This document shows positions 4,658 through 63,181 of a stretch of 64,000 nt of DNA, piece by piece. Position numbers and translations under genes: made by a program. This DNA comes from Candidatus Dormiibacterota bacterium (GTDB lineage Bacteria; Chloroflexota; Dormibacteria; Aeolococcales; Aeolococcaceae), in assembly GCA_963754015.1 (NCBI GenBank), contig CAVWEG010000004.1:262455-326454 (forward strand). The letters are read 5' to 3'. Below the pieces are notes generated by a model. That model saw only the letters and a program-made list of their open reading frames with translations. It had not been told where the DNA came from and made no database searches. The first letter of the stretch is position 1, and each line of letters opens with the position of its first letter.

Positions 4658-4673
4658 GTCAATTGTTGACAGT
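4658..4673. promoter_or_regulatory. 16-bp palindromic motif, site 1 (GTCAATTGTTGACAGT)
   Basis: Perfect GTCAA-TTG-TTGAC inverted repeat, 230 bp upstream of the minus-strand secreted-protein gene ending at 4428. Confidence 0.5.
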
Positions 4674-4870
4674 CGTCGCACCTTGAATTGCTATCTACGG
4701 CCCCATCCATGCCGGATTGCGAGCGCAGGCTCCTCACCCTCAGCGCGTTTATGACGGAGTTGCCCCTGTCAATGGTATCCCGACCAGAAGGTCGATCCAC
4801 CGCAAACGCCTCGGAGCCGAGACAGCAGCTCTGCAACACCTACCTGAACAGCCGCCTGATTCCGAAATGT

Positions 4871-5350
4871 CTACGGCCGGTTCGATGGCTTTGCGCCTCG
4901 CCTTCCTTCCCGCAACTGAGCCGATGACGACGGGCGACGACCAGGTGCGCGCTGTCGGCGTTGAATCTCCAGGCGCTCTTGGATATAGCTCTCGACTGCG
5001 GCGATCGGTACGAGCCTCCGGGCGCCGACGGTGAAGTACGGCAGGTCCCGCTGCAGAAGCTTATAGACGGTATTTCGCGACACTCCCAGAGCTGCGGCAA
5101 CATCGTCGACCCCTAAAGACAGGCGCACGCCCGAGACTCTGCGATCAGCCGATGGAGGCTCGTCCCCGGCGCTTGCCAGCTTCGAGCCCTCGCTCTCGAC
5201 ATCGCTCGCGCTAGTCACGATCAGCGACGTGTACCCGCGTTGACGCCAACAAGCACCCCACCTGATGCAGTGCCGGCGCGACCGTCTGCATTCCTTCGAC
5301 GCGCGCACGACTCGCCAAGTACTTCGATTGGAGTTCAAGTTGAATGTCAA
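4871..5350 (-). CDS. Excisionase/MerR-type helix-turn-helix DNA-binding protein (start uncertain, probably shorter)
   Basis: LSLGVDDVAAALGVSRNTVYKLLQRDLPYFTVGARRLVPIAAVESYIQERL matches the excisionase-family HTH pattern. Confidence 0.6.
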   Translation of the reverse strand: MTFNLNSNRSTWRVVRASKECRRSRRHCIRWGACWRQRGYTSLIVTSASDVESEGSKLASAGDEPPSADRRVSGVRLSLGVDDVAAALGVSRNTVYKLLQRDLPYFTVGARRLVPIAAVESYIQERLEIQRRQRAPGRRPSSSAQLREGRRGAKPSNRP

Positions 5351-5458
5351 CAGGCGGTCGCCGTGCTAACGCTGCAATGTCATCGGCGCAACTTCTCAGC
5401 GCCTCATCCGCTCGGCCGCTTTGGAGCTCACATCCTCCCGATCGGATTCGGGGCTGTT

Positions 5459-6145
5459 TCATGGAGAGCTGCTAGCTCGACCGAGTTGGTTGAGCAGGCT
5501 TTCGGCCAGATTCACAACCAACCGCCTCCCCGCCTGCTCCTCCATCCACCGTGCCGCACGAAGCTGCTGCGACACATTCTGCTTCGTGGTTCCCACTGTC
5601 TCTGCAATCAAGGCCTGACTCAGACCCGTCGATCGCAGCCTTGCAACCGCTTCCGCCGCCGGTAAGGCCTTCCGACTGTCGAAGAGCGCCTTCATTAACA
5701 GCAGCGCGGCTTCGAAGCTGCTCGCATCCATCCCCTCAGCAAGCACCCGCAGACCTCCGACACGACCACGCTTAGCCGCCGTGAGCGCTCGTCGCGCGAG
5801 CAGAAACGCACTCCCACGACTTTCGCGGACGCTCGCAGGTAGCGGCCTCTGTACAGAACCGATCCCCACCCCCACCCACCACTCCGCAGCCTCCAGCGCT
5901 CGCAGCGCGACCGCCGCTACCGTCTCTGCTTCGCGGATCAATCCTTCCACCTCGTCGCCGGCGGTCCGTTCGAACGGGAGCACAAACCGGAGCGACGCGT
6001 CGGCCCGTGTCTGATCCAGCCAGGCACCGACCATGTCTGGCCGCGCACGACTACGCCGTTGATCCAGGAGCACTGCCGCCAATGGCGGAACACCTACCTC
6101 GCCGAGCCACGTCACTACGCGCAGGGGTTGACTTCGCACAGTCAA
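5459..6145 (-). CDS. Putative DNA-binding regulator with C-terminal HTH (SatD-like pattern, uncertain)
   Basis: C-terminal LSQALIAETVGTTKQNVSQQLRAARW is an HTH; central TAGDEVEGL resembles the GDEFQG motif I associate with SatD-type proteins. Confidence 0.5.
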   Translation of the reverse strand: MTVRSQPLRVVTWLGEVGVPPLAAVLLDQRRSRARPDMVGAWLDQTRADASLRFVLPFERTAGDEVEGLIREAETVAAVALRALEAAEWWVGVGIGSVQRPLPASVRESRGSAFLLARRALTAAKRGRVGGLRVLAEGMDASSFEAALLLMKALFDSRKALPAAEAVARLRSTGLSQALIAETVGTTKQNVSQQLRAARWMEEQAGRRLVVNLAESLLNQLGRASSSP

Positions 6146-6203
6146 CCCCGAGGCATTGACGCGTCGAGAGATCCCATCAACCCCATCGTCGCGATCCCTG
6201 GTT

Positions 6204-7273: not shown

Positions 7274-7304
7274 GACTAGATCCAGCTCCAGATGGTCTGG
7301 ACAC

Positions 7305-7610: not shown

Positions 7611-7619
7611 CGGAAATGC

Positions 7620-8093: not shown

Positions 8094-8191
8094 GGCCTCA
8101 GCGCCCTCCTGCTTGCTTCACCGTACTGGCCGTATCGTGACAGATGTATCCCTAGAAAGTCAACTCTCCTCGATCCGCTACGCTTCCGCGG

Positions 8192-8696: not shown

Positions 8697-8730
8697 GTTG
8701 ACAGCAGTGTTTGACAGCAGTTTTGACCGA
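8697..8730 (+). repeat. Short tandem direct repeats TTGACAGCAGT x2 plus partial third (TTGACCGA)
   Basis: GTTGACAGCAGT GTTTGACAGCAGT TTTGACCGA, 66 bp downstream of the tRNA-like CCA end. Confidence 0.7.
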
Positions 8731-9100
8731 GGGAGCGCGGCGATTGGGGGGTTCAGGGTGGCTGAGGGTGCCCGTCTGATGGTGCCTGGGTGGGCAGATG
8801 GAAGCGTGGGGCTCTGCGAACGGGAGGGATTGAGCGCCTCTGGGAAATGTGGGGAGTGTCCGCACCATCAAGCTGAGGTCGCTCAACGTGTGCAATACCG
8901 AGGCACACTACTCGTCTCCAGGTCACTGCTCCCGCCGTTGAACCCCCAGTGGATCCTGGCTGATAAACGGGCCATCAGACGGTCGCTCTGCTGCCTAACG
9001 AACTCGAATGAATTCGCACTTCTCGTCCGATTCGTCGTCGCGTTGCCATACGGGCTATCCCCCTCCGTCGCGCGGAGCAGTCATCGACCGGTTCATGCGT

Positions 9101-9116
9101 GTTGATTGTCGACAGT
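9101..9116. promoter_or_regulatory. 16-bp palindromic motif, site 2 (GTTGATTGTCGACAGT)
   Basis: 14/16 match to GTCGATTGTTGACAGT; about 265 bp upstream of secreted-protein gene 9379..9873. Confidence 0.45.
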
Positions 9117-9378: not shown

Positions 9379-9873
9379 ATGGGCGGGACGAAGTCACGAA
9401 GTGGCTCTGGCGTTGCCATGACAGACGTCACCGCTCGCAGACGGCGCCAACGTCCGTCACGGAGAGTCGCGTTCGTTGTCCTCCTCGCTTGCCTGAGCGC
9501 CTCCACTGCCGTTGCCCTCACGCGTCCCCTCGACGCCGGCGCAGTGGGATGCAACGGCTACTCGAAGTATGCCTACGGCCCGGAAAACGCCTATGCATCC
9601 CTGCTCGGAGTGCCGGGTGCTTGCGGCACCGAAGCCTGGTGGGGCAACGCCTCAAACCGCGCGGGCGGCCTCTTTTATAGTATCGACATCACCCTCAAGG
9701 CGTGGGTGTGCGGCCCGCTCGTGTACAACCAGTCACGCAGCGGCAACAACCAACAGCAAGAGACGTTAAACACTCCGACGTATACCTACGGCAGCTGCGG
9801 ACCGCAGTCCCAGAACTCTGGTGAAATCATCACGAACGATGGCACCCATTGGGATTTCGGGCTGAATTTCTGA
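9379..9873 (+). CDS. Secreted cysteine-containing protein
   Basis: GGAGGA 7 nt before the ATG at 9379. Arg-rich n-region then hydrophobic core VAFVVLLACLSASTAVALT. Mature part has paired Cys (GCNGYSKY, GACGTEAWWG, WVCGP, GSCGP). ATG 9418 is an alternative start. Confidence 0.7.
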   Translation: MGGTKSRSGSGVAMTDVTARRRRQRPSRRVAFVVLLACLSASTAVALTRPLDAGAVGCNGYSKYAYGPENAYASLLGVPGACGTEAWWGNASNRAGGLFYSIDITLKAWVCGPLVYNQSRSGNNQQQETLNTPTYTYGSCGPQSQNSGEIITNDGTHWDFGLNF

Positions 9874-9919: not shown

Positions 9920-10441
9920 ATGAGCAGCATGCGACGACACATCCCAGGCGTGGTGCAACTGCCAGCCATCGGCGTCGTCCTTGTCGCAATCGTGCTCGGC
10001 ATCGTACTTGGCCTCCGGCACTCACCGGCGGGCGTGCATCGTTCCTCGCTCATGAACTTCGCCATCACGACGCAGGCAGAAACAGGTTCGTCACCGACAT
10101 TGAGCACCGCGCAAGCCGACGCGGCTGGGCGCCAGCTACTGGCCGACGACCCCAACAACCCCTTCACTAATTACGTGCTCGCCAGTGCAGCCTTCGAACC
10201 TGGGCTGACGCAAGTCGCCGATCCAAGCGGGGTCCTCTGGTTTCAAGCCAACCCGCCAGAGAATGACTACGTTCTCGTCTATACCGCGCCGGCTCAAGGA
10301 GGCTACAAGTACATCGCATCCATGATCGTGGTCGACGCCGACACGGGCAAGGAGAGCGAGTACCAGCTGCGCTACTCGAACACCCAGAGTGCCGTGCTCC
10401 CGGCGCCGCCATCCACGCCGTGCGCCGCCTGCGCTAACTAG
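9920..10441 (+). CDS. Membrane-anchored hypothetical protein (single N-terminal TM)
   Basis: GGAAGAGGAG upstream of the ATG; TM segment VVQLPAIGVVLVAIVLGIVLGL; co-directional 46 nt after the secreted-protein gene. Confidence 0.65.
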   Translation: MSSMRRHIPGVVQLPAIGVVLVAIVLGIVLGLRHSPAGVHRSSLMNFAITTQAETGSSPTLSTAQADAAGRQLLADDPNNPFTNYVLASAAFEPGLTQVADPSGVLWFQANPPENDYVLVYTAPAQGGYKYIASMIVVDADTGKESEYQLRYSNTQSAVLPAPPSTPCAACAN

Positions 10442-12079: not shown

Positions 12080-12742
12080 TCATGCCGTATCGGAGTTTTG
12101 ACCCTCCGAAGGGGTTTGCAGTACATATGAAAGCTCCCATCGAGAGTGTAGGTTCAGCTTCCGCAAGATGACTTTCATATGGCTCTTCACAGTGTTCGTG
12201 CTAAGGCCAAGAGCGGCTGCAATCGCACCGTCCCGCACCCCTTGCGCCGCACAGAGCGCAACCCTGCACTCCTGCTTTGTCAAGTTCGTGAGAGGCATCG
12301 CTTGGGGGGTCCAAACAACTGCGACGGCGCCCGATATCACAGCTTTTGCCGCTCGCGCCGTCGCCTCACAGTCGCGCTCTATCCCTCCTAGGGCGACTCT
12401 GAGGCGCGCGACCGTCCCTTGAAGTCGCTGCAAATGGCGCTCAAGCTCCAGCAGATCCACGCTCAGCTCACTCGGCGGTTGTGTCACGCTCAATGAGCCG
12501 TCGTGGTTGTTGGCACGGTCCCGCAACGCCGCCGTGCCAAACAAATCAACGCGACGGGCATTGTTGCCAGGAGTTGAGGGATCGCTTGTGCGAACCAGGC
12601 CGCGCTCGATGGGTGTTGCGGCTTGACGCTGGTTCCCTTCCATGCGCGACTCCTCCCTGACGGCCTCCGCATTCAGGTCGGAGAGTGGCTCTCTGTCACA
12701 CAGTCGTGGGGTCGCTTTTAGGCTGAGAGTACCCTCCGCCAA
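12080..12742 (-). CDS. LuxR/GerE-family transcriptional regulator
   Basis: C-terminal LTKQECRVALCAAQGVRDGAIAAALGLSTNTVKSHMKVILRKLNLHSRWEL is a canonical GerE HTH. Confidence 0.8.
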   Translation of the reverse strand: MAEGTLSLKATPRLCDREPLSDLNAEAVREESRMEGNQRQAATPIERGLVRTSDPSTPGNNARRVDLFGTAALRDRANNHDGSLSVTQPPSELSVDLLELERHLQRLQGTVARLRVALGGIERDCEATARAAKAVISGAVAVVWTPQAMPLTNLTKQECRVALCAAQGVRDGAIAAALGLSTNTVKSHMKVILRKLNLHSRWELSYVLQTPSEGQNSDTA

Positions 12743-12895: not shown

Positions 12896-13213
12896 TCATG
12901 CGAAGCGATCAGCCTCGAGATGTGCAAGAAATGCATCCGCGAGCGCATGGAGTTCCATCGATGCGCTCTCATCGTCGACCACGGCAGTTGCCAGCCGGTG
13001 CGCGCGCTCGACGAGCTCGCCCAAAACGTCTGGATCTTCGGTCGTCCAACCACGCGAGGCGATCAACCGGAGGACCTTGCCAAACTGCCCTTTTGTGCTG
13101 CTCACACCAATAATTCTGAACGATTCGAATTGATAAGTCGAGCCCGCCATACCGAACGCAACGTTAGGAGAACTGGGGCTAACGGGCACCCGTCGACTGT
13201 CGAATGTTGACAA
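12896..13213 (-). CDS. Hypothetical protein (start uncertain, maybe 13150)
   Basis: Plausible helical C-terminal half (WTTEDPDVLGELVERAHRLATAVVDDESASMELHALADAFLAHLE); no family recognised. Confidence 0.4.
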   Translation of the reverse strand: MSTFDSRRVPVSPSSPNVAFGMAGSTYQFESFRIIGVSSTKGQFGKVLRLIASRGWTTEDPDVLGELVERAHRLATAVVDDESASMELHALADAFLAHLEADRFA

Positions 13214-13214
13214 T
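13199..13214. promoter_or_regulatory. 16-bp palindromic motif, site 3 (GTCGAATGTTGACAAT)
   Basis: 14/16 match to the consensus; 86 bp upstream of the ATG of secreted-protein gene 13300..13887. Confidence 0.5.
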
Positions 13215-13299: not shown

Positions 13300-13887
13300 A
13301 TGGCGCGTAGCCGCACACAGCGTATAGCCTTTGCGGCCCTGGCAGCAGCCGTGAGCATCACTGGCTTCGCGGTCGGCACCGCGCCCAACATCGCCCATGC
13401 GGCCTCCTGCACGGAACAGAGTGGAGAGGTTTATGACTTCAATCACATTGCGTATGGCAGCGGCTATCTGCAGCTCGATCTCAGCTGGGCCTTGACCACT
13501 AATAACTACTGCTCGCATCCGATCGACACCATGGAAGTCATCAACAATTTCACGTCGAGTGTCAAGGACCTCTTCGACGCGAGCCACTCCGTGCTCTTCG
13601 ATGAACTGGTCGATGACAATAGCGGCGCCGTCTATGAAACGGATGGGAGACCAACCATGTATAACCCCAGCGATCCGTACTCTGGATACCTTGAGGGCTA
13701 CGTGCTCAATTGGCCAACCTGTCAAGGTGGGGCGCCTTGTACCGCGACAGCTTACAACTCGTTCGTAAGCAGCCCATGTGCCAACAGTCTGATTGACAGC
13801 TACGAGGATCAACAGAGCTTTGTGATTGGTCCCGCGAGCTGTAGGAATCCTGTTGCCGGCGAAGGCGCACTCAGCGTCTCGAGTTAA
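13300..13887 (+). CDS. Secreted cysteine-containing protein
   Basis: AGGAGG 8 nt upstream of ATG 13300; signal peptide MARSRTQRIAFAALAAAVSITGFAVGTAPNIAHA/AS, then a Cys at mature position 3; further Cys pairs. The ORF-track start at 13204 is rejected. Confidence 0.75.
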   Translation: MARSRTQRIAFAALAAAVSITGFAVGTAPNIAHAASCTEQSGEVYDFNHIAYGSGYLQLDLSWALTTNNYCSHPIDTMEVINNFTSSVKDLFDASHSVLFDELVDDNSGAVYETDGRPTMYNPSDPYSGYLEGYVLNWPTCQGGAPCTATAYNSFVSSPCANSLIDSYEDQQSFVIGPASCRNPVAGEGALSVSS

Positions 13888-27130: not shown

Positions 27131-27643
27131 TCACGCCGCTGTGTCGTCAGCCTCACCACTCTGCGACGCCGCTACTCCAAAGAGGAAACCACCGAGCGCC
27201 CCCACCAATCCCGCGATCGCTGGAGGGAACTCCCCTGCTGTCGGGAGTGGCAGCACCTGTTGCAGCCGATCTTCGCACCCGCTCCACGGACACCGCCGCA
27301 TGATGAATTGATCGGACGCGGTGACGACCCGTTTGCAACTGGGGCACTGACCCACCCTCACCGTCTGCAGCTGCCCCTGGATCGAGTTGGCCCATGCGCG
27401 CCAATTCCGGTCCCGCTCCTGCATGACCGCGAGGTCCTGATTCCGCTGTTGGATGAGCTGCTCCAAGTTGGCAACCGAGCGCTCATTGGCAGCGGCCTCG
27501 AGGCCACGCTCCACGAGAAACGAAAGGGCTGAGCTCAGCGTCATCCCCCGCTCAAGCGCGTACTCCTCGGCGTCCTCGCGAAGTTTCGCTGACGCTCGAA
27601 AGTACAGGCTTTCGGAGCGCGTCGCCGGATCGTTGGCGGGCAA
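27131..27643 (-). CDS. Ribbon-helix-helix-like N-terminus + coiled coil + zinc ribbon + C-terminal TM protein
   Basis: LYFRASAKLREDAEEYALERGMTLSSALSFLVERGL (RHH-like); CPSC...CPWSGC; GEFPPAIAGLVGALGGFLFGVAA (TM). Confidence 0.6.
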   Translation of the reverse strand: MPANDPATRSESLYFRASAKLREDAEEYALERGMTLSSALSFLVERGLEAAANERSVANLEQLIQQRNQDLAVMQERDRNWRAWANSIQGQLQTVRVGQCPSCKRVVTASDQFIMRRCPWSGCEDRLQQVLPLPTAGEFPPAIAGLVGALGGFLFGVAASQSGEADDTAA

Positions 27644-28038
27644 CGCCTACGATCCCAGGAGCCGAGCGAAAAATCCCTTTTTCTTGGGTCCTCGTGGCTT
27701 GCCGACGTCACTGCGCTTGCGCCGCCAACCACCCGATTTGGTCCGAGATCGCGGTTCCTTGCCGACATGAGGGATACGTCCTCCAGCTCGACGATCTGCT
27801 GGCATCGCATGGCCTCCATATGGTCAATTTGGTGGCGTTGGTGTGGACTGTACCAGATTCTCTGGCAATTGTGTCAGATTATCGATACGAATCGATACAT
27901 TCACCGGTTAAAGCTATTCGTAACCCAGCGAGCTAGGGAACGACAGCAGTCGTAGCTCCCCCGGTTGTTGCGGCGACGTCCGAGAGGACCAAAGGGGGCC
28001 CATCGGAGGGGACATTAGAAGGGACATCAGGCGCGCCG

Positions 28039-28054
28039 TTCGATTGTCGACTGT
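28039..28054. promoter_or_regulatory. 16-bp palindromic motif, site 4 (TTCGATTGTCGACTGT)
   Basis: 13/16 match; 28 bp upstream of the Fic gene ATG, with a TATATT box at 28067-28072. Confidence 0.4.
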
Positions 28055-28081
28055 CTTGTTTTTGAGTATATTTGGTGAGTT

Positions 28082-43628: not shown

Positions 43629-44294
43629 TTAGCAATCATTATTGGGTGTCCATCCCACAGGCTCGTCATACACCTTAGTCGGCACTGTGACATCTTGGTT
43701 GCTGATGACAAGTGTCGTGTTGGCGTTCGCGTTGCCGAAGGAATCGAAGTTACCGTCACAAAGCGTGCTATATGTCTGTTCTGTGCTGGTAACCTCGAGA
43801 TTAGTGTTGCCGTTTGTTCCGCCCAGGTAGTACGGGGCATTGAACGCGCCGATTTGCCCGATATCCCATGGCACGCCGGTACAACTAGTCCATCCCACGC
43901 CAACAATGGCGCAATCCGAGAAGTAATTCGGACCGCCGGGATAGGCGGTACCGTACCACGTAGTATCCCAACCCTCGACACGCAACCCGCTGCCTTGGTT
44001 GTTGTTGAAGAAGTCTGCCGTCGATCCAAGTTGATAGTCTTGGATGACATACATATCCCCCCAGTCGTGGCCTGCCCATTGCGTACATCCTGACGCCGGA
44101 ATCTGCTCGAAGCTTGACGTCATGTCGATGTAATTGCCGTCAGCCAGATTCTTGATGTCGTACCAAGGGTGCGTGTAGGTTGTGAAATAGCAATCATTGG
44201 ATGCGTGTGCAATCTTCGCCGCCCCGAAGGTAAACGCTGTTGCCCCGACCAACAGAGCGGCCAGCCCGATTGAGGCCTTCCTAGGTAGTCGCAT
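43629..44294 (-). CDS. Secreted cysteine-containing protein, paralog family A
   Basis: AGGAGGAG upstream of ATG 44294; signal peptide MRLPRKASIGLAALLVGATAFTFGAAKIAHA/S; NDCYF, GCTQWAGHDWGD, C-terminal NNDC. The long ORF-track N-extension is rejected. Confidence 0.8.
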   Translation of the reverse strand: MRLPRKASIGLAALLVGATAFTFGAAKIAHASNDCYFTTYTHPWYDIKNLADGNYIDMTSSFEQIPASGCTQWAGHDWGDMYVIQDYQLGSTADFFNNNQGSGLRVEGWDTTWYGTAYPGGPNYFSDCAIVGVGWTSCTGVPWDIGQIGAFNAPYYLGGTNGNTNLEVTSTEQTYSTLCDGNFDSFGNANANTTLVISNQDVTVPTKVYDEPVGWTPNNDC

Positions 44295-44871
44295 GCGTCT
44301 CACGAATCTCCTCCTGTGTTGCCTGGCGTGGGATGGTGATGCTATGCGCCGAGTGTCATACAGGCGCAGCGCGCCCATCTTGGTCCTTTTATAGCCGCTT
44401 TGCACGGCGCGGTTTGATACGGCAGTGGCGGTGCGACCATTGACCGGAGAGCGGACAGCTTCGCCTAGTGCGCCCTCGGTGCAGGATTCCGGCGACGCCG
44501 ATGACCCCAAGGGCGATAGTGGCGGTCATCGCGACGATGGGCAGGCGGCCCATGCAAAGATCGCGCCGATCCAGCGAGACGGCTACGGGCTGACCGCAAT
44601 GATCGTCCCGACGAAGGGTGTGATGATGAGGGCGAAGCCACTACTGATCACTGCACCGGTGCCCACAGGAGCCTCGATTGGTCGCGTTCAAGCGTTTGCA
44701 ATCCGCTTAGCCCTACTAACCATGACGTTTCAAGGCTGTCGGCCTTCTGAGATCGGGCGAGGATCAACGTCCCGTAGAAGGCAGGCCGACGTTCACCGCA
44801 ACGAGCGACGGGAAGAGTGTTGCAGCTGCGAACGCGCTTCGCGGACCGAGGAAGCGCGGATCGAAGGAGGG

Positions 44872-50358: not shown

Positions 50359-51198
50359 TTACGAACTCGGGACGGCGACCTGCGTCAACGAGTGTTGGGC
50401 AAGTCGCTCCCAGACGTGATGCGGCACGATCCCCCGTTTGAGCATGTCGATATCCGAGGGGCTGATTTCCAACGCCAGCGCTTCGGCCTCAAGCGCGTCG
50501 GGGGAATCGCGCAGACGCATCAGCCGGTCGGCCAAGGCGAGCGTCAACTCGGTGACCCGGGCCGTCGTGTCAGTGATGTGCTCTGTGGACCGCTGAATTT
50601 CATCGGGATCGTAAGCCCTATTGCGGAGCGCCATGACCGGGAGCCGTCCGAGCGCCGCGACATCCTCCATCTTCAAGTTTGGGTCACGCGGTGTAAGGCT
50701 ATGCACACGCGTCGCCACCACCTTGGCGGCAATCTGCGCCCCACTGTGCTTCTGCGCCGGGCTGAGACCGAGCACAATGCCTGGCCCTGTTATGGAACTC
50801 AGCCGGTTGTAGAACATCGCCATGAGGATGAAGAGAGCCACGAAGCTAATGAGGGCCACCTCCACCGCGTCGGTTGCTGAGCTGTTCGTCTTCGTAACCA
50901 CCGTGCCCGTGACCGGCGACGGCGTTGCTGTGGGCGGTTCCTGTGATGCAGAGGTTGGCGAAGGGGCCGCCCCTGCGTAGGTCGTCGCCGTAACCGAGGA
51001 TGTCTCAAGGCTGTCGACAGCCCGCAAACCCGCTGCTAACGCAACCACCAGCGCGAGAAGGCCGAGGATGATCCGCGGCCCCCAATTTGCGTCGTCTCCG
51101 CCGACATGTCCGCTCACCCGAACTCCGTCCCGAAATCGCAGTCCATGACCGGCATCCCTCCGTGGCCAGCCCACGGACGCGGGCGGCGGCCGCATCAT
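50359..51198 (-). CDS. Hypothetical membrane protein (two TM segments)
   Basis: TM segments IILGLLALVVALAAGL and VALISFVALFILMAMFY; Ser/Thr/Pro-rich linker. Confidence 0.55.
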   Translation of the reverse strand: MMRPPPASVGWPRRDAGHGLRFRDGVRVSGHVGGDDANWGPRIILGLLALVVALAAGLRAVDSLETSSVTATTYAGAAPSPTSASQEPPTATPSPVTGTVVTKTNSSATDAVEVALISFVALFILMAMFYNRLSSITGPGIVLGLSPAQKHSGAQIAAKVVATRVHSLTPRDPNLKMEDVAALGRLPVMALRNRAYDPDEIQRSTEHITDTTARVTELTLALADRLMRLRDSPDALEAEALALEISPSDIDMLKRGIVPHHVWERLAQHSLTQVAVPSS

Positions 51199-51881
51199 AG
51201 TCCCGCCGGAACCCAGGAGACAAGAGGACCGTCACCGAACTCGGAACGACGGTCGCAGCATCGGTAGCAATCTGCTTGCTTGGGTCGCCACATGCCCTGC
51301 GACATGCACCGGAAATCCCCGAGACGCCAAACGGACCCAGCAGGGCAACTCCTCACAACGTACGTCAGCGCGACCAATCCACCCAGAACTCTGCGACGCT
51401 CAGGGGATACGCGCCACGAAGAGTCCAAAGGCTTTGAGCACGAAGCTGTCGAAAACGCAGCCGGCAACGCCAACGCTGCATCCCCAACCTCCGGCCGAGG
51501 GTCGTGACTCAAAAGTGAGACCCCCGGCACGCCGCCGAGGGCCTCATCAGGAAGGGAAATGAGTTTCGCAGTGACACCGGGAAAACGGATCCATGTCTTC
51601 CGGACAGCATCTTACCGTCTGTCGATTGTTGACCGTTACCGCTTCATATGCGCTCGGTTATTCGTCGCCATCAACGCGTCGATATCCGTTCGCATCGCAG
51701 GGGGACGCATGCAGGCCCTGCGTATTCCCCAGCTCGGGATGCCCCAGGTCCGGCAAGTCGGGCGCTGGCTCGATCGTCCCGTTCGCAGGAACCATCGGAG
51801 CGGCGACCGGGATCGTGGGGCAGGGGTCAACGTGTCCCGGACGTTGAGCCGGACTAGCAGCGGACGTGCCTTGCAACCCGC

Positions 51882-52298: not shown

Positions 52299-52528
52299 CG
52301 AAGCACCCCTGATCGGTCAACCGTAAGGAGGACCGTCGATGACATCCTCCACCTCGGCTAGCGCCTGCTGTACGAAGCCTCCGGTTGCGGTGCAACGGCA
52401 TCGCTGAAAGCGCAGTCAGCGCGCCGAGGGCGACCCGGGACGACAAGATATCTCGGGAACCTTGCAAGCGCGCCAGAAAACCGTCAACATCGCCCGCAGA
52501 AGACCCTCTCTAGGGTCCATCTCAGGAG

Positions 52529-53200
52529 GTGGCATCCATGCGCAAGCCGCTCATCCTTGGCGTGGTGGCGCTGCTCGTTGGAGGCTCCGTCATCGGGTTT
52601 CCGAAGGCCGTTCACGCCTCGGCTCCTTGTTACTACTCAGAGTTTCAAGACCCATTGGGGAACGTCGTTTATCTTTCGCATGACAATGATTGGGTCAACG
52701 AGACTCTCAGCATTTGGCAGATTCGCGGAGCCGGCTCCATCGGATGCACGCCGTGGAAGAATCACGTGTACGGCGATACCGAGGTCGAGATTTCTTGGCA
52801 TACGGACAACGGCACGCTGTTGAGAGACGAGCCCAATAACCCGGACGTCTCACTGACTCTCGAGGCGTGGACCTACGATACGACCTACAACGATGCCTAC
52901 TTCACGTATGCACCTAGCTGGTACTTCTACTACGACACGGGCTCGGACCACGGGGGCTATAGCTGGTATTACACTGGCGGCGGTCCCGCAGGCACCGCGA
53001 GTTCTGGGAACTACGTGAGCGATATCGCGCTCCTCAACCCCAGCGGCAATGACGTTTGTGGTGTCGATCTCAGCGATGGTTGGGGATCTCCCGCCGGGGG
53101 CGGCGCCGCACACACCCGCTACGTAGACTACGACGGCTACATCTACACAACGTCGAGTCACGTCTTTCCTCTTGCCGATTACCTTGGGTGCCCCGGATGA
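52529..53200 (+). CDS. Secreted cysteine-containing protein, paralog family A
   Basis: Signal peptide MASMRKPLILGVVALLVGGSVIGFPKAVHA/S; APCYY, GCTPWKNHVYGD, C-terminal LGCPG. Confidence 0.8.
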   Translation: MASMRKPLILGVVALLVGGSVIGFPKAVHASAPCYYSEFQDPLGNVVYLSHDNDWVNETLSIWQIRGAGSIGCTPWKNHVYGDTEVEISWHTDNGTLLRDEPNNPDVSLTLEAWTYDTTYNDAYFTYAPSWYFYYDTGSDHGGYSWYYTGGGPAGTASSGNYVSDIALLNPSGNDVCGVDLSDGWGSPAGGGAAHTRYVDYDGYIYTTSSHVFPLADYLGCPG

Positions 53201-54444: not shown

Positions 54445-56061
54445 TTACGCCCCTGCCCCTCGAGGGTCCGACCCGGCGATGACCATCGCACGGATCCATC
54501 CAATCGCCGTGAACACGAGGCAAAGGCCCGACACAAACATAGGGATGACCCAAAGGACTATCGGTGGTCGCGGCTCAACCGAAAGGAAGGCTGCCGCAAA
54601 CAACGACGCGCCGATCAACGCGATGGCAACGCCCCTCCAACTGCGGATCAACCACCTGACGCTGGCGTGCTGACCTGGTGGAAACACGATTGCCACGAAG
54701 ATCGCCGGCGCCGCAAGGATCAGCGTCGTGGCGCCCCCCTCATCGGAGTGATCACCCACAAGGTGTGCCGCGAGCCCTCCGATCAAGACCGCGAACGTAA
54801 GTGCCGCCAGTAGCAAAGTCGTCATCAAAACGCTCGGCGAGAGCGTGAGCGTGAGCACCGCCCGCTGCACAGCGATCGCGCCTTCGCGGTTGACATACAG
54901 GTGTGCGCGCTCGGCGCATGGCCGGCTGGCTTGAACGCTTGGAACAATCCCCCCGGCACCATCTTCGAAGCGTGCATCCGCTATGTGTATGCCCTCGGCG
55001 ACTGGGATCTCGGCGTGATAGGCGCTCGCGAGCTGAGCCTGAGGAACGAGAAACCCGACACGCGTCGAACTCAACCCGACGAGCACCGGTAGGTCTCCCC
55101 ACCGAAAGCTACGGCGCTCCGCCTCATTATCGAACTCGTACTTGAGGACGATTCGTTCGCGAGGCTGCGCATCGACGATGGCGTAGAGCGCGTAGCAGCG
55201 TGCAAAGTAGTTGCCAAGGACGGCGAGCCACTGTCGCGCGAACCACGCTGTGATCGCCGTCGTGAGATCTGCTGCTGCATGGTCGATTCGCGTCGCGATA
55301 TCTCCCAACTTCGCGTTGCGTCCGGAGTGAAGCCCCTTTCGCAAGGTCCGGACCGCATCGAGCGACCGTTCGACGGTAATAGTGGCGGCGTCAAACTCGT
55401 GACGTTCCAGCAACCCCGTGACCGTGTGCGCACTGGACATGAGACCCATTACATGCTCAAGATCCGCAAGCGTCACGCGCAGCCCAGAGCTGCCTGAGCT
55501 TCTGAGCTCTCGCAGGTCGGATTGTGCACGTTCAGCCGCAGTCACAAACCGTCGTCCGGTGGCTCGGATCGCGTCGCTGATTGCGCTCTCACTCGCGAGG
55601 TTAAGAAGCTGCACGCTGGAGGCCTGCGCCTGTGCCTCGTCCACTTCGGTCAGAAGCGCATCGATCAGCGCTTCGGCCTCCGGTGTGATCGGGGCGCCCA
55701 TCTGGGTGGTGCGAAACACTTGGTGGAAAACCGCAGTGGTCAGCTCCTGCCCGTCGCGTTTCGTCAAAATCGGCAGCGGTCCTCCGTCGGGCCGATACGA
55801 GTCGAAGTGTTGGAGTACCCCCGGCGTTTTCCCGATAAGCGTCAGAGGAACAATCAGGCCGCCGCGACGAGCGCGCATTCCCGCGAGCAGTTCATCGCTC
55901 AATGTCGGAATCGTGAGATCGACACTCGTATGCCGCCGAACCGTGCGAAAACTCACAAACTCTATGGTCTCGACGCGACGATGAACCCAATCGTCCCATC
56001 GATACAAGGGCTCCACCAGCCACCAAGCTTCTACGTCGAGATCGACACCGACGTCCTCCAC
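54445..56061 (-). CDS. Hypothetical protein with large soluble N-domain and about 4 C-terminal TM helices (538 aa)
   Basis: Long clean ORF. C-terminal hydrophobic segments LMTTLLLAALTFAVLIGGLAA, LILAAPAIFVAIVF, VAIALIGASLFAAAFL and IVLWVIPMFVSGLCLVFTAIGWI. Confidence 0.7.
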   Translation of the reverse strand: MEDVGVDLDVEAWWLVEPLYRWDDWVHRRVETIEFVSFRTVRRHTSVDLTIPTLSDELLAGMRARRGGLIVPLTLIGKTPGVLQHFDSYRPDGGPLPILTKRDGQELTTAVFHQVFRTTQMGAPITPEAEALIDALLTEVDEAQAQASSVQLLNLASESAISDAIRATGRRFVTAAERAQSDLRELRSSGSSGLRVTLADLEHVMGLMSSAHTVTGLLERHEFDAATITVERSLDAVRTLRKGLHSGRNAKLGDIATRIDHAAADLTTAITAWFARQWLAVLGNYFARCYALYAIVDAQPRERIVLKYEFDNEAERRSFRWGDLPVLVGLSSTRVGFLVPQAQLASAYHAEIPVAEGIHIADARFEDGAGGIVPSVQASRPCAERAHLYVNREGAIAVQRAVLTLTLSPSVLMTTLLLAALTFAVLIGGLAAHLVGDHSDEGGATTLILAAPAIFVAIVFPPGQHASVRWLIRSWRGVAIALIGASLFAAAFLSVEPRPPIVLWVIPMFVSGLCLVFTAIGWIRAMVIAGSDPRGAGA

Positions 56062-56347
56062 CGATGCGCCTCCTTCCTATCAGGCCGCGTAGCGATTGCG
56101 GAGCATAGGATCTTCCCGTAGGACTTGCAACCGCCAGTCGCGACTAGTCGGGGTGCCGCTCGACCTGACAGGTACGCTCGGCGTCGACGTTTCGCGAGGC
56201 TGGGGCGCCAACCACGCACGCCGACCGCTACCGTCGCACGAGAGCACAGGACGCTACCATCGAGGATCTGTGCTAGACGACTGATGCAACCAGTTTCGGA
56301 ATGGCTGCGGGAGGCGAGGGCGAATGCCCTGTGCTGCATGAGCGCCC

Positions 56348-56363
56348 GTCGATTGTTGACGAT
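56348..56363. promoter_or_regulatory. 16-bp palindromic motif, site 5 (GTCGATTGTTGACGAT)
   Basis: 14/16 match; about 325 bp upstream of secreted-protein gene 56688..57317. Confidence 0.45.
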
Positions 56364-56687: not shown

Positions 56688-57317
56688 ATGCGACTTCGCA
56701 GGGATATTGTCGCGGGCGCAGCCGCGCTAGCGATCGTCGGAGCGGGTCTAGGCGTCCGGCCGACCTCGGCTAAAGCGTCTACGTCATGCGGCGCTTCGTC
56801 GACACTGCTCGGCGACTACGCGCAGTACTTCACCTTCAATGGCTTCACAAACGGCGCGTTGTACCAGATCGAGTTGCGAGGCACCTGGAGCAAGAAGAAT
56901 AAGGCTAACGATTGCATCTGGGGACGCGTAACCTACACGGCACAGGCGAGCTTGTTTTTCGACGTTGACGGTACCGCCTACCCCGCCGCAGGGCTCAGTG
57001 GAACCATTTGGTACTCGCCGAGCTTCGGTGTGTGGGATGCCGACCCTTACTCGGTAGAGAGCTTGAGCCAATCGTGGTACGGCGTCAGTAATAACTCGTC
57101 CGAGCCCGGTCCAGAGGATCCCAGCGTCCTACAGGTTCAGGGCCAGATGATAGCTGGCCCTCCGTCGTGGTCCGGCGATTGCATCGTTATGAATCCTGAA
57201 GGAAACGTCGGTCCGCCATACACTCAGGACTCTTATTTTGCCGACGCAAGCGGCAACACGTACACGGCTGGCTCCAACGTGCCAGGGAACAACACAACTC
57301 TTATCTGCCCGAGCTGA
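56688..57317 (+). CDS. Secreted cysteine-containing protein
   Basis: GGAGGAG upstream; signal peptide MRLRRDIVAGAAALAIVGAGLGVRPTSAKA/S, then TSC; further Cys at NDCIWG, GDCIVM and LICPS. Confidence 0.75.
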   Translation: MRLRRDIVAGAAALAIVGAGLGVRPTSAKASTSCGASSTLLGDYAQYFTFNGFTNGALYQIELRGTWSKKNKANDCIWGRVTYTAQASLFFDVDGTAYPAAGLSGTIWYSPSFGVWDADPYSVESLSQSWYGVSNNSSEPGPEDPSVLQVQGQMIAGPPSWSGDCIVMNPEGNVGPPYTQDSYFADASGNTYTAGSNVPGNNTTLICPS

Positions 57318-57973: not shown

Positions 57974-57989
57974 GTCGATTGTTGACAGT
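57974..57989. promoter_or_regulatory. 16-bp palindromic motif, site 6 (GTCGATTGTTGACAGT; equals the consensus)
   Basis: Lies in a gene-poor stretch just left of the IS1595 remnant; no obvious intact downstream gene. Confidence 0.45.
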
Positions 57990-58249: not shown

Positions 58250-58690
58250 TGTGGCGACCGGACTCCCGCTCAACCAGGGGGCTCGACGCTGTGATGGATG
58301 CCGGAGATCACGCGCTGAACAGGCTCCAAAAGTTCTCGATGCCATGGGTATGGACGCGGCCACGCACATGCGCCTCGGAGTGGTCGATGACCTCATGGGT
58401 GTAGTCCTGCTCAAGGCCACGATATGACGCGAACGCGTCTGTGTAGACGATAGAGCCAGGAGCAACGTTGGTCCCAACCTCGGAGCGAAGCACATGGCCG
58501 GTACGCGTCGGAACCATCTTGGCGCGGACTTCGCCGTCGCGCACTCGTGGCTCGAGCCACGATCTTGCCCGAAGGCCGGATTCCTCACCAGCTCGCACTA
58601 TCAGAAGGGTTGCGGCGGGCTCGACCGCTGACGCTCTCCAAACCAGTTCTAAAGGGACTCTAGATCGCCGGAGGGTGATCACTGTGTGAG
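58250..58690 (-). mobile_element. IS1595-family (ISXO2-like DDE) transposase remnant, truncated and frameshifted
   Basis: IVYTDAFASYRGLEQDYTHEVIDHSEAHVRGRVHTHGIENFWSLFSA, then a stop. The family pattern continues after a frame change (VISGIHHSVEP). No intact N-terminus or terminal inverted repeats identified. Confidence 0.6.
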
Positions 58691-59350: not shown

Positions 59351-59445
59351 CAGCCTCCCCCAGTCGTCATAAGAAGAAAGAACTTCACGTACCCAGCGAA
59401 CGATGCCCCGGTCCCCGTCTGAAAGTCGATAAAGTTAACAGCGCC

Positions 59446-59568: not shown

Positions 59569-59724
59569 CCTTTGGCGACCGGGCACCCGGATGACGTGCC
59601 CGTCTGCCGGTTCACGAGAGAACCACCGAATTGACCCGCACACGCAATCCACGCTGCCCTGCGAGGAACTGCCGAACACGGAGTAACAAGGCTACCCCAA
59701 GCAGCCGCTGACTAAGGAGCAAGG

Positions 59725-60308: not shown

Positions 60309-60821
60309 TTGTCGAGGGTGATGCGGCACCAAGCGTCAGCGACGGCACCGACACCCCCGCGTGGACCATCGGCGCGAATGCCCAGGGAACCGTGACCGGG
60401 TCCTACACCAACGCGCAGACCAACGTGGTGACTATCGCGGCCAGTGGGCGTCGCAACCCCTGACCGAATCCCAAACGAAGTCCGAGCAGGTGCTTGACTC
60501 TGCTTGGGTTTTTGAGTGCAGCTGAACTAGATCCCCAACTTCTTGGGGGCAAGGCCCGGTGGAGCAGTCTGCCGGGCCTTTCGCATGCCTGCATGATGGC
60601 CGATCTGTCTGCTTACCGTAGCCGCCGCTACGCCGAACACACCACAAGCGCAGCGCCGCCCGCTACGTTGAATCAGCCCGCCCCTCAATCATCCGCCGCT
60701 TCGTGCCTTGCTCGATGATCGCGCCGAACGCGGCTGTCTGGATCACGCTGGCAACGACCAGGTCGATGGCGATCGGGCCAAGCGTCAGCACGCCACCCTC
60801 GCCACGTCAGAGCATATCGTC

Positions 60822-61820
60822 TCATCCGTTACGAGCCAATCGACGGACTCGCCGTAAGTTCGCACGCAGGCGTGCGAGCGCTTCGCGCTTAAATAAAAGT
60901 GCTCGTTTCTCAAGCGGACTCACAACCATGCCGACGAGCGCGACGCCCGTGGAAGTCGCGTTCCCAGCGCCAACTGCTTCAGTATCGCGAACGAGGCTAA
61001 CGGATCGCAGTTGCCTGGCGCGTAGCAAATCACGATCGACCGACGCATCGAGGAGGCGGAGACCAACGGTGAATTCGTGCGATCCGATCTCCGTCGGAAA
61101 GAATGAGGCCACCTCGAAGTCGATGAGATCAAGACGGGCGAGCTTCGCAAAGAGGGCCAAGAACGAATCGGGGGTGAACACGTGACAGTGAACATCCACG
61201 AACTCGTTCTTCTCTTTCATGCGTCGACAGGCTTCGAGCGCGGCGACGTCAGCATCGTCGACATGTGCCGGAATGGTGGCGCTGTAGTCGGCCACGCCGA
61301 CCCACAAAGAGTCCGCGTCAACCATGCCGGCTATCGCCTTGGAGTAGAAGTCGTAGGCTTGTCGGTAGCTCGGTTGGCGCAGGTTTCGGAGGTAAGCGTC
61401 CACGACGTCACTGACGTGGGTGATCTCGCGATTGATATCGAACGAGTACCGTTTATCGGGAATCACGAGGGAGAAGATGCCACCGGGTGGCAACACAGCA
61501 GCCACCTCAGCTATCCATCCCACCGGATCTGGAATGTGCTCGATCACGTGTGAGGCGATGACGTAATCGAACGGCGCATCAGCTCCGACCGCGTCGGCGA
61601 TTGTCTTGTTATCACCAACGACGTAATCGACGTCTACTATCCTTTTGAGTCGGTTCTGCATCCCTGGATTCGTCGCATACTTCTGCTTGAGCGCTTCGCT
61701 GCTGGCATGATCGAGGTAACGGATCGGCCCTTCGTCCTTGGTAACGCGCGGCGTCGCTAACGGCCCGATCTCTAGACCACGCATGACGGCCACGTCGATG
61801 TTCATTAGTTCAGGACGCAT
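60822..61820 (-). CDS. Class I SAM-dependent methyltransferase
   Basis: FDYVIASHVIEHIPDPVGWIAEVAAVLPPGGIFSLVIPD is the typical post-motif-I/II region of Methyltransf_11/23-type enzymes. Confidence 0.8.
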   Translation of the reverse strand: MRPELMNIDVAVMRGLEIGPLATPRVTKDEGPIRYLDHASSEALKQKYATNPGMQNRLKRIVDVDYVVGDNKTIADAVGADAPFDYVIASHVIEHIPDPVGWIAEVAAVLPPGGIFSLVIPDKRYSFDINREITHVSDVVDAYLRNLRQPSYRQAYDFYSKAIAGMVDADSLWVGVADYSATIPAHVDDADVAALEACRRMKEKNEFVDVHCHVFTPDSFLALFAKLARLDLIDFEVASFFPTEIGSHEFTVGLRLLDASVDRDLLRARQLRSVSLVRDTEAVGAGNATSTGVALVGMVVSPLEKRALLFKREALARLRANLRRVRRLARNG

Positions 61821-62232
61821 GATCGCCTCGAAGGGATGCGGTCGGTTGGTGCAGCGCCAGTCGGCGCTAATCCCAGCAGCGGCCGCGGTGTTGGCCGCGC
61901 AGCTGGATTAAGCGCTTTGGCGCTGCCCTCGAATCGTTTCAGCCTGGGCACTTGAACCTGAATTGTATGCGGGCTCCGAATGAGGAGCGATATGCTACCG
62001 GCTCTTCATATCGCAAGGGGAACGCAGGCGGGCCGGCGTCGTCATTGGGGGATCTGGACACGCAACCGGGTTGGTGGCCCGTTGGAGAATTCAGCGGCTA
62101 CCGCGTCTTCGCACGATTGTGCTTGCTTCGACGCAACTCAAGATCGGCACCTCAAGACGCGGAGTGCTCAACACGATCGACACGGCGCGAACCCTTGGAC
62201 GCAGTCGGGTGCAACTCTCAGGTGACAGTGGG

Positions 62233-62685
62233 TCAGTGAGGAGGCGTGAGGGTGAGCGACCAAGGGCAACCGATCGCCCCGACCGTTCCACGCTCTGGTA
62301 CAGGGAGCGACCACGTGGCTGCGCCCGGTGGCATATAACCGGAAATCCCTCTCCATCGCCCAGCCGTCAAATACACCGACCCGTCGTCGTGACCTGTGGA
62401 GCCCTCCGGTTCGCTAACCGCGCCACGCGGACTGACGAGGCGAAACGTGGCGAAAGGAACACAGGGTTCCAACGGGAATCCAGAGACCCGCACCTGCGGA
62501 TACGTCAGGGTGAAACGGTAGGTTCCGGTCTCCGCGATTGGAATGACGGCCTGGACGGCCCCGGTCCAGGACGGCTCCGTCCCGGCTCGGCTTGTGATCG
62601 ATGTCGCGACTCGCGGGTTTGACGCACATCCGGCGAGCAGCCCGCACAACGCCAAACTCGCCAAGAGAGTTGATCGGCTACGCAT
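62233..62685 (-). CDS. Lipoprotein
   Basis: MRSRSTLLASLALCGLLAGC-AS contains a canonical lipobox (LLAGC). The internal ATG 62685 is preferred over the ORF-track start. Confidence 0.7.
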   Translation of the reverse strand: MRSRSTLLASLALCGLLAGCASNPRVATSITSRAGTEPSWTGAVQAVIPIAETGTYRFTLTYPQVRVSGFPLEPCVPFATFRLVSPRGAVSEPEGSTGHDDGSVYLTAGRWRGISGYMPPGAATWSLPVPERGTVGAIGCPWSLTLTPPH

Positions 62686-63165
62686 CTCACAAGGCTTACG
62701 CGCCGGATGGTCATAAAGTTCCCCGGCCTCGCGAAGGCTCAAGGTGATCGATCGTCCTGCCAGCCGGTTCCTGTGCCCTCGTTGGCCTACTCGGTCCCTC
62801 GGCACAAAATAACAGCGGAACGCCGACAGAAAGCACCATGGCGGCAGCGAAATTGTTCAGCGTCGACGGAGCGGGCGCGCGCCGACGTGGGATGACCGTC
62901 CTAAGACGAGTTGGGGGACGGCCAGGGTTGGGCGTCCGTTCGCGCGACCTGGGCACCCTGCGCGCTCGGGCTTAATGACTGCCGCCCGCAGCACGCGTAC
63001 AGCGGCCTTGCAGACTCCGAGTACGACGACGACGCCTTAGTGGCCGGAGCCGTCGTTGATGCGCGTCGTGTGCCGCTGTAAGGAGCCCATCCTGAGTGGC
63101 AGAGAAGCGATCAACCGACGAGCTCCGCGCTTCTTGGAGACTTTGCTGCTATCGCAATGACGGAA

Positions 63166-63181
63166 AGCGTTAACAATCGAC
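63166..63181. promoter_or_regulatory. 16-bp palindromic motif, site 7 (reverse complement GTCGATTGTTAACGCT)
   Basis: 13/16 match; 111 bp upstream of secreted-protein gene starting at 63292. Confidence 0.4.

Follow-up and report, generated by a model that had tools for sequence, protein, structure and literature searches.

We find that a 16-base motif repeated across a 64-kb stretch of DNA from an uncultured soil bacterium of Candidatus Dormiibacterota (the window, or island, below) is probably the operator of a FadR-subfamily GntR regulator encoded on another contig, C7, a prediction that takes in proposed binding at the island sites. The best reading of the sequences is that the putative regulon of this remote repressor has spread into strain-specific DNA with small cysteine-rich secreted proteins. 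The repeated motif itself is real. With up to three mismatches allowed, it has ten matches in the window against 0.44 expected from shuffles, and none of 100 shuffled windows reached ten. The coordinates and sequences of the seven sites listed in a first-pass annotation of this DNA were all verified, and an eighth strong site, at 51621–51636 (GTCGATTGTTGACCGT, one mismatch), was absent from that list. The two remaining matches (29789 and 59146) are weak: for one the weight matrix gives no score of at least 12, and the other falls inside the Imm35 gene. Genome-wide there are only 16 strong sites, as ranked by a weight matrix trained on 14 of its 16 top-ranked sites, and eight of them fall within the 64-kb island. 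Almost all are intergenic (15/16, p = 4e-10 over the whole genome), in keeping with the earlier prediction of a shared operator for one transcription factor.

The inverted repeat described previously is present and reaches further than had been noticed. Its deeply conserved core, positions 5–16 (ATTGT-YG-ACAGT), forms a FadR-type TTGT-N2-ACAR palindrome, and an additional box, (AC)TGTCG, lies to the left. Flanking positions beyond the search pattern show an excess of A(-2), C(-1) and T(0), which complement positions 14–16 (T at position 0 in 9 of 16 sites, p = 0.0015). Core and left box together form a 19-bp dyad or, equally, two to four heptads GTYGAYW in a 7-bp register; the upstream heptad, which is outside the search pattern, is heptad-like (p = 1e-4), and off-register controls are not. 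Sequence similarity among the sites ends beyond ~21 bp. Two proposed "degenerate relatives" of the motif, at 52480 and 59425, have an indel or altered spacing relative to it and do not score; the tandem TTGACAGCAGT repeats at 8697–8730 match the right half-site and nothing beyond it. The strong window sites, with their scores, are the following predicted operators:

4658–4673, plus strand: GTCAATTGTTGACAGT, score 29.3; a third heptad, GTTGACC, precedes; 229 bp upstream of sA (minus strand)
9101–9116, plus strand: GTTGATTGTCGACAGT, score 27.6; 262 bp upstream of sE
13199–13214, plus strand: GTCGAATGTTGACAAT, score 31.5, the genome's highest; a third heptad, GTCGACT, precedes; 85 bp upstream of sB and 456 bp from the start of the divergent LuxR gene
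28039–28054, plus strand: TTCGATTGTCGACTGT, score 22.8; 27 bp upstream of the Fic start codon
51621–51636, plus strand: sequence as above, score 30.7; 90 bp upstream of the minus-strand pair 51195–51530 / 50359–51198, the second gene of which (50359–51198) encodes a membrane-anchored protein
56348–56363, plus strand: GTCGATTGTTGACGAT, score 27.4; 324 bp upstream of sC, in a divergent region with minus-strand genes 56031–56339 and 54445–56061
57974–57989, plus strand: exact consensus GTCGATTGTTGACAGT, score 30.0; no intact gene downstream; adjoins an IS1595 transposase fragment
63166–63181, minus strand: GTCGATTGTTAACGCT, score 23.1; a heptad, GTCGGAA, precedes; 110 bp upstream of sD (plus strand)

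The gaps to the five secreted-protein genes and to the Fic gene agree with those reported before, and site-to-start-codon distances in the island range from 27 to 325 bp. The neighbouring genes are listed below; all except the transposase fragment are putative targets.

3820–4425, minus strand: sA, 201-aa secreted cysteine-containing protein, signal peptide ...AHAS/TPCYY
9379–9873, plus strand: sE, 164-aa secreted protein; a membrane-anchored protein (9920–10441) follows
13300–13887, plus strand: sB, secreted protein of ~195 aa
28082–29356, plus strand: Fic-domain protein, 424 aa (PF02661, E = 3.9e-13)
56688–57317, plus strand: sC, 209-aa secreted protein
58308–58682, minus strand: IS1595-type DDE transposase fragment (PF12762, E = 2.7e-14), the IS remnant recognised in the first-pass annotation, adjoining the site at 57974, probably an operator orphaned when its gene was disrupted
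63292–64000, plus strand: sD, 262-aa secreted protein, continuing past the window end

In translation, the secreted proteins show signal peptides; they have no recognisable enzymatic domain. The supposed link of the motif to such genes holds in the window (5/8 sites versus ~10/70 genes, p ~ 0.002 by a rough count); genome-wide it is only modest (7–9 of 16 sites, versus a background in which 25% of genes have a hydrophobic N terminus). Also among the putative targets are Fic, the divergent operon of the regulator itself, and genes for membrane proteins and lipoproteins. In two other regulator-carrying genomes the motif is also found upstream of unrelated small secreted proteins. Because the island targets are mostly strain-specific, conservation of regulon membership can be compared for the sA family only. 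Paralogues of sA are located at 52538–53200 and within the minus-strand ORF 43629–44510, and a 46% homologue of one of them, sA2, on another organism's contig has the core motif ~190 bp upstream. For sC, a single distant homologue is known. The site at 28039, next to the Fic gene, overlaps a possible TTGTCG-16-TATATT promoter and lies within a 12-bp-periodic RGGGACAT array.

Of the eight strong sites in the window, seven point the same way. Sites are concentrated in strain-specific DNA both here and in genome G436, and on contig C9 one site lies 33 bp away from a break in synteny with G436. These features would suit a recombination or cassette-boundary site that mobilizes island genes, comparable to the 31-bp repeat array at 470–3694 in the window. 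We regard such a role as extremely improbable, since the motif bears no relation to the 31-bp repeat and is fixed at 16 loci between the regulator gene and its divergent operon (see below), and since intergenic promoters are expected at gene-replacement boundaries regardless. An extended joint site and an accompanying recombinase were sought; similarity stopped at ~21 bp, and no recombinase was consistently nearby.

The exact 16-mer consensus of the island sites is found 27 bp upstream of the gene for the GntR regulator, a FadR-type protein of 243 aa (contig C7, 261949–262677, outside the window) with a GntR winged helix and an FCD ligand domain according to Pfam. The window itself contains no GntR genes. 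None of the other GntR paralogues in the genome is more than 30% identical to the C7 regulator, and no strong sites were found within ~2 kb of them. The C7 operator exactly covers the -35 regions of two back-to-back promoters. One of them (TTGACA-17-TACGGT) reads toward a 167-aa protein and a class-V aminotransferase; the TANNNT -10 box of the other ends 6–7 nt before the GntR start codon, implying a leaderless mRNA.

The TTGACA embedded in the motif, and the canonical TTGACA-17/18-TANNNT promoters at the C7 locus and in genome G037, raise the question of whether the motif is a plain strong promoter element (a TTGACA -35 with an upstream extension) used by the housekeeping sigma factor without a dedicated regulator. 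This is very unlikely. The first-pass annotation had found no consistently spaced -10 boxes, and at all eight island sites a TANNNT box 15–20 bp from the -35-like hexamers is missing in both directions. The CGATTG extension is present on just 2 of 656 genomic TTGACA hexamers, non-hexamer positions and dyad flanks are conserved, two island sites face away from the sole adjacent gene start, and across genomes the motif goes together with the GntR gene. Of the 16 strong sites, only the C7 autoregulatory one has a -35 followed by TANNNT at 16–19 bp, and it has this in both directions.

The operator of a GntR regulator is expected to lie upstream of, or divergent from, a gene with GntR winged-helix and FCD domains and to be conserved across orthologues. 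All 16 loci examined, each encoding the C7 regulator or a homologue at least 49% identical, have the core upstream (11 genus orthologues, one at 49% identity, and four at 50–56%). In footprinting of the 11 genus-level orthologue loci (72–100% identity), the motif and both -10 boxes are kept and the flanks diverge; at one of them, L078, the neighboring genes differ and the motif is kept. In another family, a low-GC genome encodes the 49%-identical orthologue, with two sites at a distance of 21 bp. All four 50–56% homologues, one of them from an actinobacterial Gaiellaceae MAG, have ATTGTCAACAAT-type cores no more than 330 bp upstream, where chance expectation was estimated at ~0.007 per locus. 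In the loci of distant homologues the 12-mer ATTGTYRACAAT is palindromic; we found no published report of this operator core in the literature.

An orthologue of the regulator is encoded in 4/41 relatives and 4/401 sampled genomes of the phylum (its own genome counted in both), in addition to the one 49%-identical homologue. Within the genus, the motif is largely restricted to genomes with the regulator: 17 sites were found in 6 genomes that carry it versus 5 sites in 21 that do not, ~12-fold more (p = 6e-8; p = 9e-5 once the regulator-adjacent site is subtracted), although regulator-carrying genomes are related to each other and these counts are not fully independent. The exception is G037, which has the exact 16-mer and no orthologue. 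The 16-mer there has only an indirect explanation: G037 encodes a FadR paralogue, 30% identical, whose own site (GTTGACA-GTTGACA) is similar.

The first-pass annotation had put forward XRE, LuxR and RHH proteins of the window as candidates for the binding protein. The window's own regulators are LuxR/GerE (12080–12742), RHH_5 (27131–27643), and HTH_17 (4871–5350), any of which would make the island a self-contained regulon. Three sites are within 200–460 bp of these genes, and the 7-bp register, with two to four heptads in the motif, would be most naturally matched by the RHH protein, in the manner of omega, the pSM19035 repressor. Binding to short tandem repeats is known for RHH proteins, omega and MetJ among them. 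We nevertheless consider an island-encoded binder very unlikely. Among 41 relatives each of the three proteins is confined to this genome, save for one weak RHH hit in G037, and the motif is not; none has a homologue in the multi-site genus genomes G013 and G019; and the exact site beside the GntR gene, conserved at 16 loci, would be left unexplained. For an omega- or MetJ-like operator, heptads are present and the nearby RHH gene is absent from other motif-bearing genus genomes.

Assignment to the GntR regulator rests on sequence identity, footprinting, and co-occurrence. In the mechanism we propose, both C7 promoters would be shut by one dimer at the operator or by two to three acting cooperatively, and the protein would come off once a small-molecule effector bound its FCD domain. 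The clade of the C7 regulator is uncharacterized (nearest solved structures match at E = 6e-17 only), and for this clade of GntR/FCD regulators 576 database proteins match at E ≤ 1e-40. Homologues adjoin peptidases, dipeptide-epimerase-like enzymes, and oligopeptide ABC transporters; hence the effector is probably peptide- or amino-acid-derived. The C7 protein may bind all eight island sites, creating a metabolite-responsive switch for five unrelated small secreted cysteine-containing proteins, the Fic enzyme, and a membrane-protein pair. It could act there as a repressor or, at the distal sites (85–325 bp upstream), possibly as a roadblock or an activator.

The switch itself would be a standard bacterial design with an ordinary mechanism. 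The regulator and its sites form a concrete, testable candidate regulator-operator pair for an uncultured phylum-level lineage (Dormibacteria), provide a putative shared operator core for a GntR/FCD clade found beside peptidase and oligopeptide-transport genes in several phyla, and flag small secreted proteins of unknown fold as putatively co-regulated, giving a handle on their function. They also suggest that a putative regulon can concentrate in strain-specific DNA far from the regulator gene. More tentatively, the same putative operator on unrelated strain-specific cysteine-rich secreted proteins and Fic raises the possibility, which we hold to be less than even, that a peptide-sensing FadR-type regulator has been co-opted in Dormibacteria to act as master switch for an accessory secretome with fast turnover. 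If so, a gene module passed from one strain to another would come directly under a single nutrient- or prey-derived signal, and metabolite sensing would be linked to interbacterial antagonism or surface remodeling in a variable toxin/defense island.

The predicted operator resembles those of known FadR-type regulators. The subfamily consensus is an NyGT-Nx-ACNy palindrome with TKGT/ACMA boxes and x = 2–3; in some groups the GT-AC distance is 2 nt, and extra boxes occur 7–12 nt from the center (PMC4494728). Positions 6–15 of our motif, TTGT-YG-ACAG(A), conform to this palindrome. Groups with GT-N2-AC operators include GntR, HypR, UxuR, PrpR, MdcY, and HpxS (Suvorova et al. 2015, PMC4494728). 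With these groups the system shares the GntR winged helix and FCD domain, a palindromic core with TKGT/ACMA boxes 2 nt apart (GT-AC), a single site covering both promoters of a divergent regulator/operon pair, and an additional weaker box 7–12 nt from the center. It differs in that half of the sites lie in a distant variable island, before non-metabolic secreted proteins rather than a local catabolic cluster, and in that the left flanking box (GTCG) is unusually well conserved.

In Streptomyces coelicolor, the FadR-type autorepressor HypR controls both catabolic genes and a putative collagenase (class M9 metallopeptidase), from sites at diverse positions relative to transcription starts (PMC6608401). 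FadR type, mixed regulon, and varied site positions are common to both systems. In contrast, the HypR motif is CTNTGC(A/C)ATGTCAC, its binding and repression were demonstrated experimentally whereas ours are predicted, and our secreted targets lack enzymatic domains. Tandem direct repeats are bound by two other GntR proteins, NanR, three dimers of which bind (GGTATA)3, and NagQ, which recognizes TGGTATT heptamers. Our sites likewise consist of short tandem repeats, two to four GTYGAYW heptads in a 7-bp register; unlike those of NanR and NagQ, each heptad is nearly palindromic (GTCGAC) and the whole site is a dyad, so that the site can equally well be described as one dimer plus an accessory box.

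The first-pass annotation had listed seven copies of a 16-bp palindromic motif in the window and suggested that they are a shared operator, and all seven were confirmed in position and sequence. When GTCGATTGTTGACAGT was searched with up to three mismatches (≤3), 10 matches were found in the window, compared with 0.44 expected from dinucleotide-preserving shuffles. They include a strong site at 51621 (one mismatch), absent from the original list, and two weak matches at 29789 and 59146. Searched at the same threshold, the whole genome (a 3.5-Mb assembly of 66% G+C) gave only 27 matches, 10 of them in the window, which spans C4:262455-326454, makes up 1.8% of the genome length, and has ~61% G+C. 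A weight matrix was built from 14 confident sites; it set apart 16 strong sites (score ≥21.7) from a noisy tail, a ranking that is partly circular, since 14 of the 16 form the training set. Eight strong sites cluster in the window (p = 1e-10), and the others lie at C7 262705, C9 57983, C9 65007, C9 71212, C1 15183, C5 138948, C5 260936, and C4 855120 (contig and position). By a rough codon-model gene call, 15 of the 16 are intergenic (p = 4e-10). GC3-based gene calling performs poorly in the window, and the codon-model caller overlooks several genes there, so site contexts in the window were read by hand.

Strong motif sites in the window and the genes they face.
Site 4658: sA, secreted protein, 3820-4425, minus strand; gap 229 bp
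Site 9101: sE, secreted protein, 9379-9873; gap 262 bp
Site 13199: sB, secreted protein, 13300-13887; gap 85 bp
Site 28039: Fic, 28082-29356; gap 27 bp
Site 51621: gene pair 51195-51530 and 50359-51198, the second membrane-anchored, minus strand; gap 90 bp
Site 56348: sC, secreted protein, 56688-57317; gap 324 bp
Site 57974: no intact gene; adjoins an IS1595 transposase fragment
Site 63166: sD, secreted protein, 63292 onward; gap 110 bp

Around the site at C5 138948, ~9 kb (C5:137800-146965) contain no called gene; this region may be decayed or of atypical composition. A near-match at C1:88851 (L021) lies within a 783-aa ORF and is kept with its flanks in three genomes (with L002 and L005), most likely reflecting coding conservation and not an operator.

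Contig C7 has an exact copy of the 16-mer, located 27 bp upstream of a gene that is transcribed divergently and whose 243-aa product contains a GntR and an FCD domain. This FadR-subfamily GntR regulator (C7 GntR) has generic GntR/FCD regulators as its closest solved structures. The TTGACA of the motif forms a TTGACA-17-TACGGT promoter for genes encoding a 167-aa protein and a class-V aminotransferase. The GntR gene, on the opposite strand, has a TANNNT box whose end is 6-7 nt upstream of its start codon; this implies a leaderless GntR mRNA, and the -35 region of this promoter likewise falls within the motif. A single site in such a divergent regulator/operon pair usually serves both operons (Suvorova et al., PMC4494728). 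The gene next after the regulator encodes an S58 peptidase. Other GntR paralogues in the genome are all ≤30% identical to C7 GntR, and no strong site was found within ~2 kb of any of them.

Orthologues of C7 GntR are rare, being present in 4/41 close relatives and in 4/401 sampled genomes of the phylum (its own genome counted in each case), plus one 49%-identical homologue. Among genus-level orthologues, which share 72-100% identity, 11/11 loci keep the motif together with both -10 boxes while their flanks have diverged; at one of these loci (L078) the neighboring genes differ. Two sites, GTAATTTGTTGACTGT and GATTGTTGACAATCGAC, lie 21 bp apart at the gene for the 49%-identical protein, which neighbors an MFS transporter gene in a genome of low G+C content from a different family. 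An ATTGTCAACAAT-type core is present at most 330 bp upstream in all four homologues of 50-56% identity, which come from metagenomes and MAGs (one labelled Gaiellaceae); we estimate a chance expectation of ~0.007 per locus. The genes next to these four encode S15 peptidases, MR/MLE-type enzymes, SBP_bac_5 proteins, and oligopeptide ABC ATPases. The motif also tracks the regulator across the genus: 17 sites (≤2 mismatches) were found in 6 genomes with the regulator versus 5 sites in 21 genomes without it, and two of these five represent a near-match that is conserved within coding sequence. This contrast is significant (p = 6e-8; p = 9e-5 without the regulator-adjacent site), with the qualification that the regulator-bearing genomes are kin and the counts not fully independent. 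This co-occurrence, and the retention of the motif in 16/16 regulator loci examined, support the earlier proposal of a shared operator for one transcription factor, and support the window motif being the predicted operator of the remote FadR-type GntR.

The binding protein had been sought among regulators encoded in the window itself, and here the remote GntR replaces the earlier candidates. Three such genes were considered:
12080-12742: LuxR regulator
27131-27643: RHH_5 protein
4871-5350: HTH_17 protein

Each is unique to this genome among 41 relatives, with the exception of a weak RHH match in G037, and the genus's remaining motif-bearing genomes contain no homologue of any of them. They cannot account for the motif in the related genomes G013, G019, and G436. 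The proposed mechanism is of a well-known kind; what makes it interesting is that its putative secreted targets are unusual and strain-specific and that it reveals an operator shared across a clade.

The search pattern covered only the 16-mer, yet the adjoining positions -2, -1, and 0 show an enrichment of A, C, and T, complementary to positions 14-16; 9/16 strong sites have T at position 0 (p = 0.0015). The motif is therefore a 19-bp dyad, ACTGTCGA-TTG-TYGACAGT. An equally good reading is as GTYGAYW heptads in a 7-bp register. Resemblance to the heptad is significant for the 7 bp 5' of the 16-mer (p = 1e-4), weak for the 7 bp 3' of it (p = 0.03), and not significant for off-register controls (p = 0.12-0.75); a clear third heptad is present at four sites, e.g., GTCGACT-GTCGAAT-GTTGACA at 13199. 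Across distant relatives, conservation is deepest at positions 5-16, ATTGT-YG-ACAGT.

Binding sites of the FadR subfamily are palindromes with TKGT/ACMA boxes and a GT-AC distance of usually 3 nt, or 2 nt in the GntR, HypR, UxuR, PrpR, MdcY, and HpxS groups, and 13 FadR groups have weaker extra boxes 7-12 nt from the center (PMC4494728). The motif core TTGT-YG-ACAG and its left-hand box match this description. Tandem arrangements are also found among GntR regulators: the NagQ operator consists of tandem TGGTATT heptamers (PMC4494728), and that of NanR is (GGTATA)3 bound by three dimers (PMC8012715). On sequence alone, the motif may accommodate either one dimer plus an accessory box or two to three cooperating dimers. 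A LexA-like reading, CTGT-N-ACAG, was set aside (spacing 9, not 8; small site set). A literature search for the operator sequence returned unrelated matches only, such as primers and shRNAs.

G037, a genome of another family, has no C7 GntR orthologue at E≤1e-30. One of its SBP_bac_5 genes is nevertheless preceded by an exact 16-mer, and another site is found close to hydantoinase and SBP genes. The genome also encodes a FadR-type paralogue (30% identity), transcribed divergently from a different SBP_bac_5 gene (L060, G037:C1:1-3097), with CCTGTTGACAGTTGACAGT and a TTGACA-17-TATCGT promoter in between. This looks like a separate peptide-utilization regulon with a related operator. At the paralogue locus a GTTGACA-GTTGACA candidate operator sits on the promoter; apart from this one, two sites (L050, L051) lie in loci with SBP_bac_5, AstE-like, and hydantoinase-like genes.

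The five secreted proteins facing window sites (sA-sE) have 164-262 aa, contain cysteine, and gave no Pfam matches. They are mutually unrelated, and the only one with paralogues at other places in the window is sA, which has two (sA2 and one more). The association of the motif with secreted-protein genes, claimed earlier, holds within the window (5/8 sites vs ~10/70 genes, p = 0.002, a rough count) and is modest genome-wide, where 7-9 of the 16 strong sites face genes with hydrophobic N termini against a 25% background, gene calls and secreted-protein statistics both being rough. Three independent observations support it. In G436, two genes for secreted proteins have a site upstream, one (at 223 bp) encoding a cysteine-rich protein of 210 aa that is unrelated to those above, the other a repeat protein of 377 aa; G019 has a site 83 bp upstream of a gene for a 283-aa secreted protein; and ATTGTCGACAGTTGACA lies ~190 bp upstream of the gene for an sA2 homologue (sA family, 46% identity) on a metagenome contig of 1.29 Mb. 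The sA2 orthologue in G018 (72% identity) shows neither motif nor upstream conservation; G018 has no regulator, and sA2 itself has no strong site. Motif and upstream conservation are also absent at the only sC homologue (43%), whose source genome lay outside the regulator search, and neither comparison bears on the association. Paralogues of the sA family lie at 3820-4425(-), 43629-44510(-), and 52538-53200(+); the mature N terminus begins (P/D)CY(Y/F), and only three homologues, 46-71% identical, are known outside this genome. An AlphaFold2 model from a 6-sequence alignment was mostly strands, at an unusable confidence (mean pLDDT 39).

To look for a plain promoter, both strands were scanned for TANNNT at a distance of 15-20 bp from any of three candidate -35 hexamers; of the 16 strong sites, only the one on C7 qualifies. 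With 0/8 window sites having such a box in either direction, the first-pass annotation was right that this explanation is not sustained. At these sites the regulator may act by repression, roadblock, or activation. HypR of Streptomyces coelicolor, a FadR-type autorepressor with catabolic and putative collagenase targets and sites at varied positions relative to transcription starts (PMC6608401), is a useful precedent.

The complete genome G436 has a 95-kb stretch syntenic with contig C9; the intervals compared (L073-L077, G436:C1:1575001-1670000, against C9 1-75 kb) differ by several strain-specific replacements. The strongest sites of the G436 stretch lie at a rearrangement junction or in segments without a counterpart here, and the three C9 sites lie within segments replaced or rearranged in G436. 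The predicted regulon is thus concentrated in strain-specific DNA of more than one genome, as might be expected if the motif were a recombination site. We give that explanation a low probability: similarity ends at ~21 bp, the sites share no consistent recombinase neighbor, and the sequence is fixed at the regulator's own promoter in 16 loci.

Other repeats occur near the sites. At 27985-28150, at least seven RGGGACAT boxes (or GAGACAT, AGGACAT) recur with a 12-bp period, two just upstream of site 28039 and five across the first ~25 codons of the annotated Fic ORF. Their core is similar to the one in the 31-bp cassette repeat (AAGGGACATTGG; 1002 and 2045). One possibility is an iteron-like array for protein binding; another is that Fic actually starts further downstream. 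A direct repeat at 27878-27900, ATCGATAC-GA-ATCGATAC, unrelated to the motif and ~240 bp upstream of the RHH_5 gene start, is a candidate operator of the RHH_5 protein. The tandem TTGACAGCAGT repeats at 8697-8730, previously listed as motif relatives, match it in the right half-site but not in the remainder. Finally, a stretch immediately before site 9101 (8982-9053) matches 33526-33597 within the Rhs gene at 83% identity, suggesting that it is a displaced piece of Rhs.
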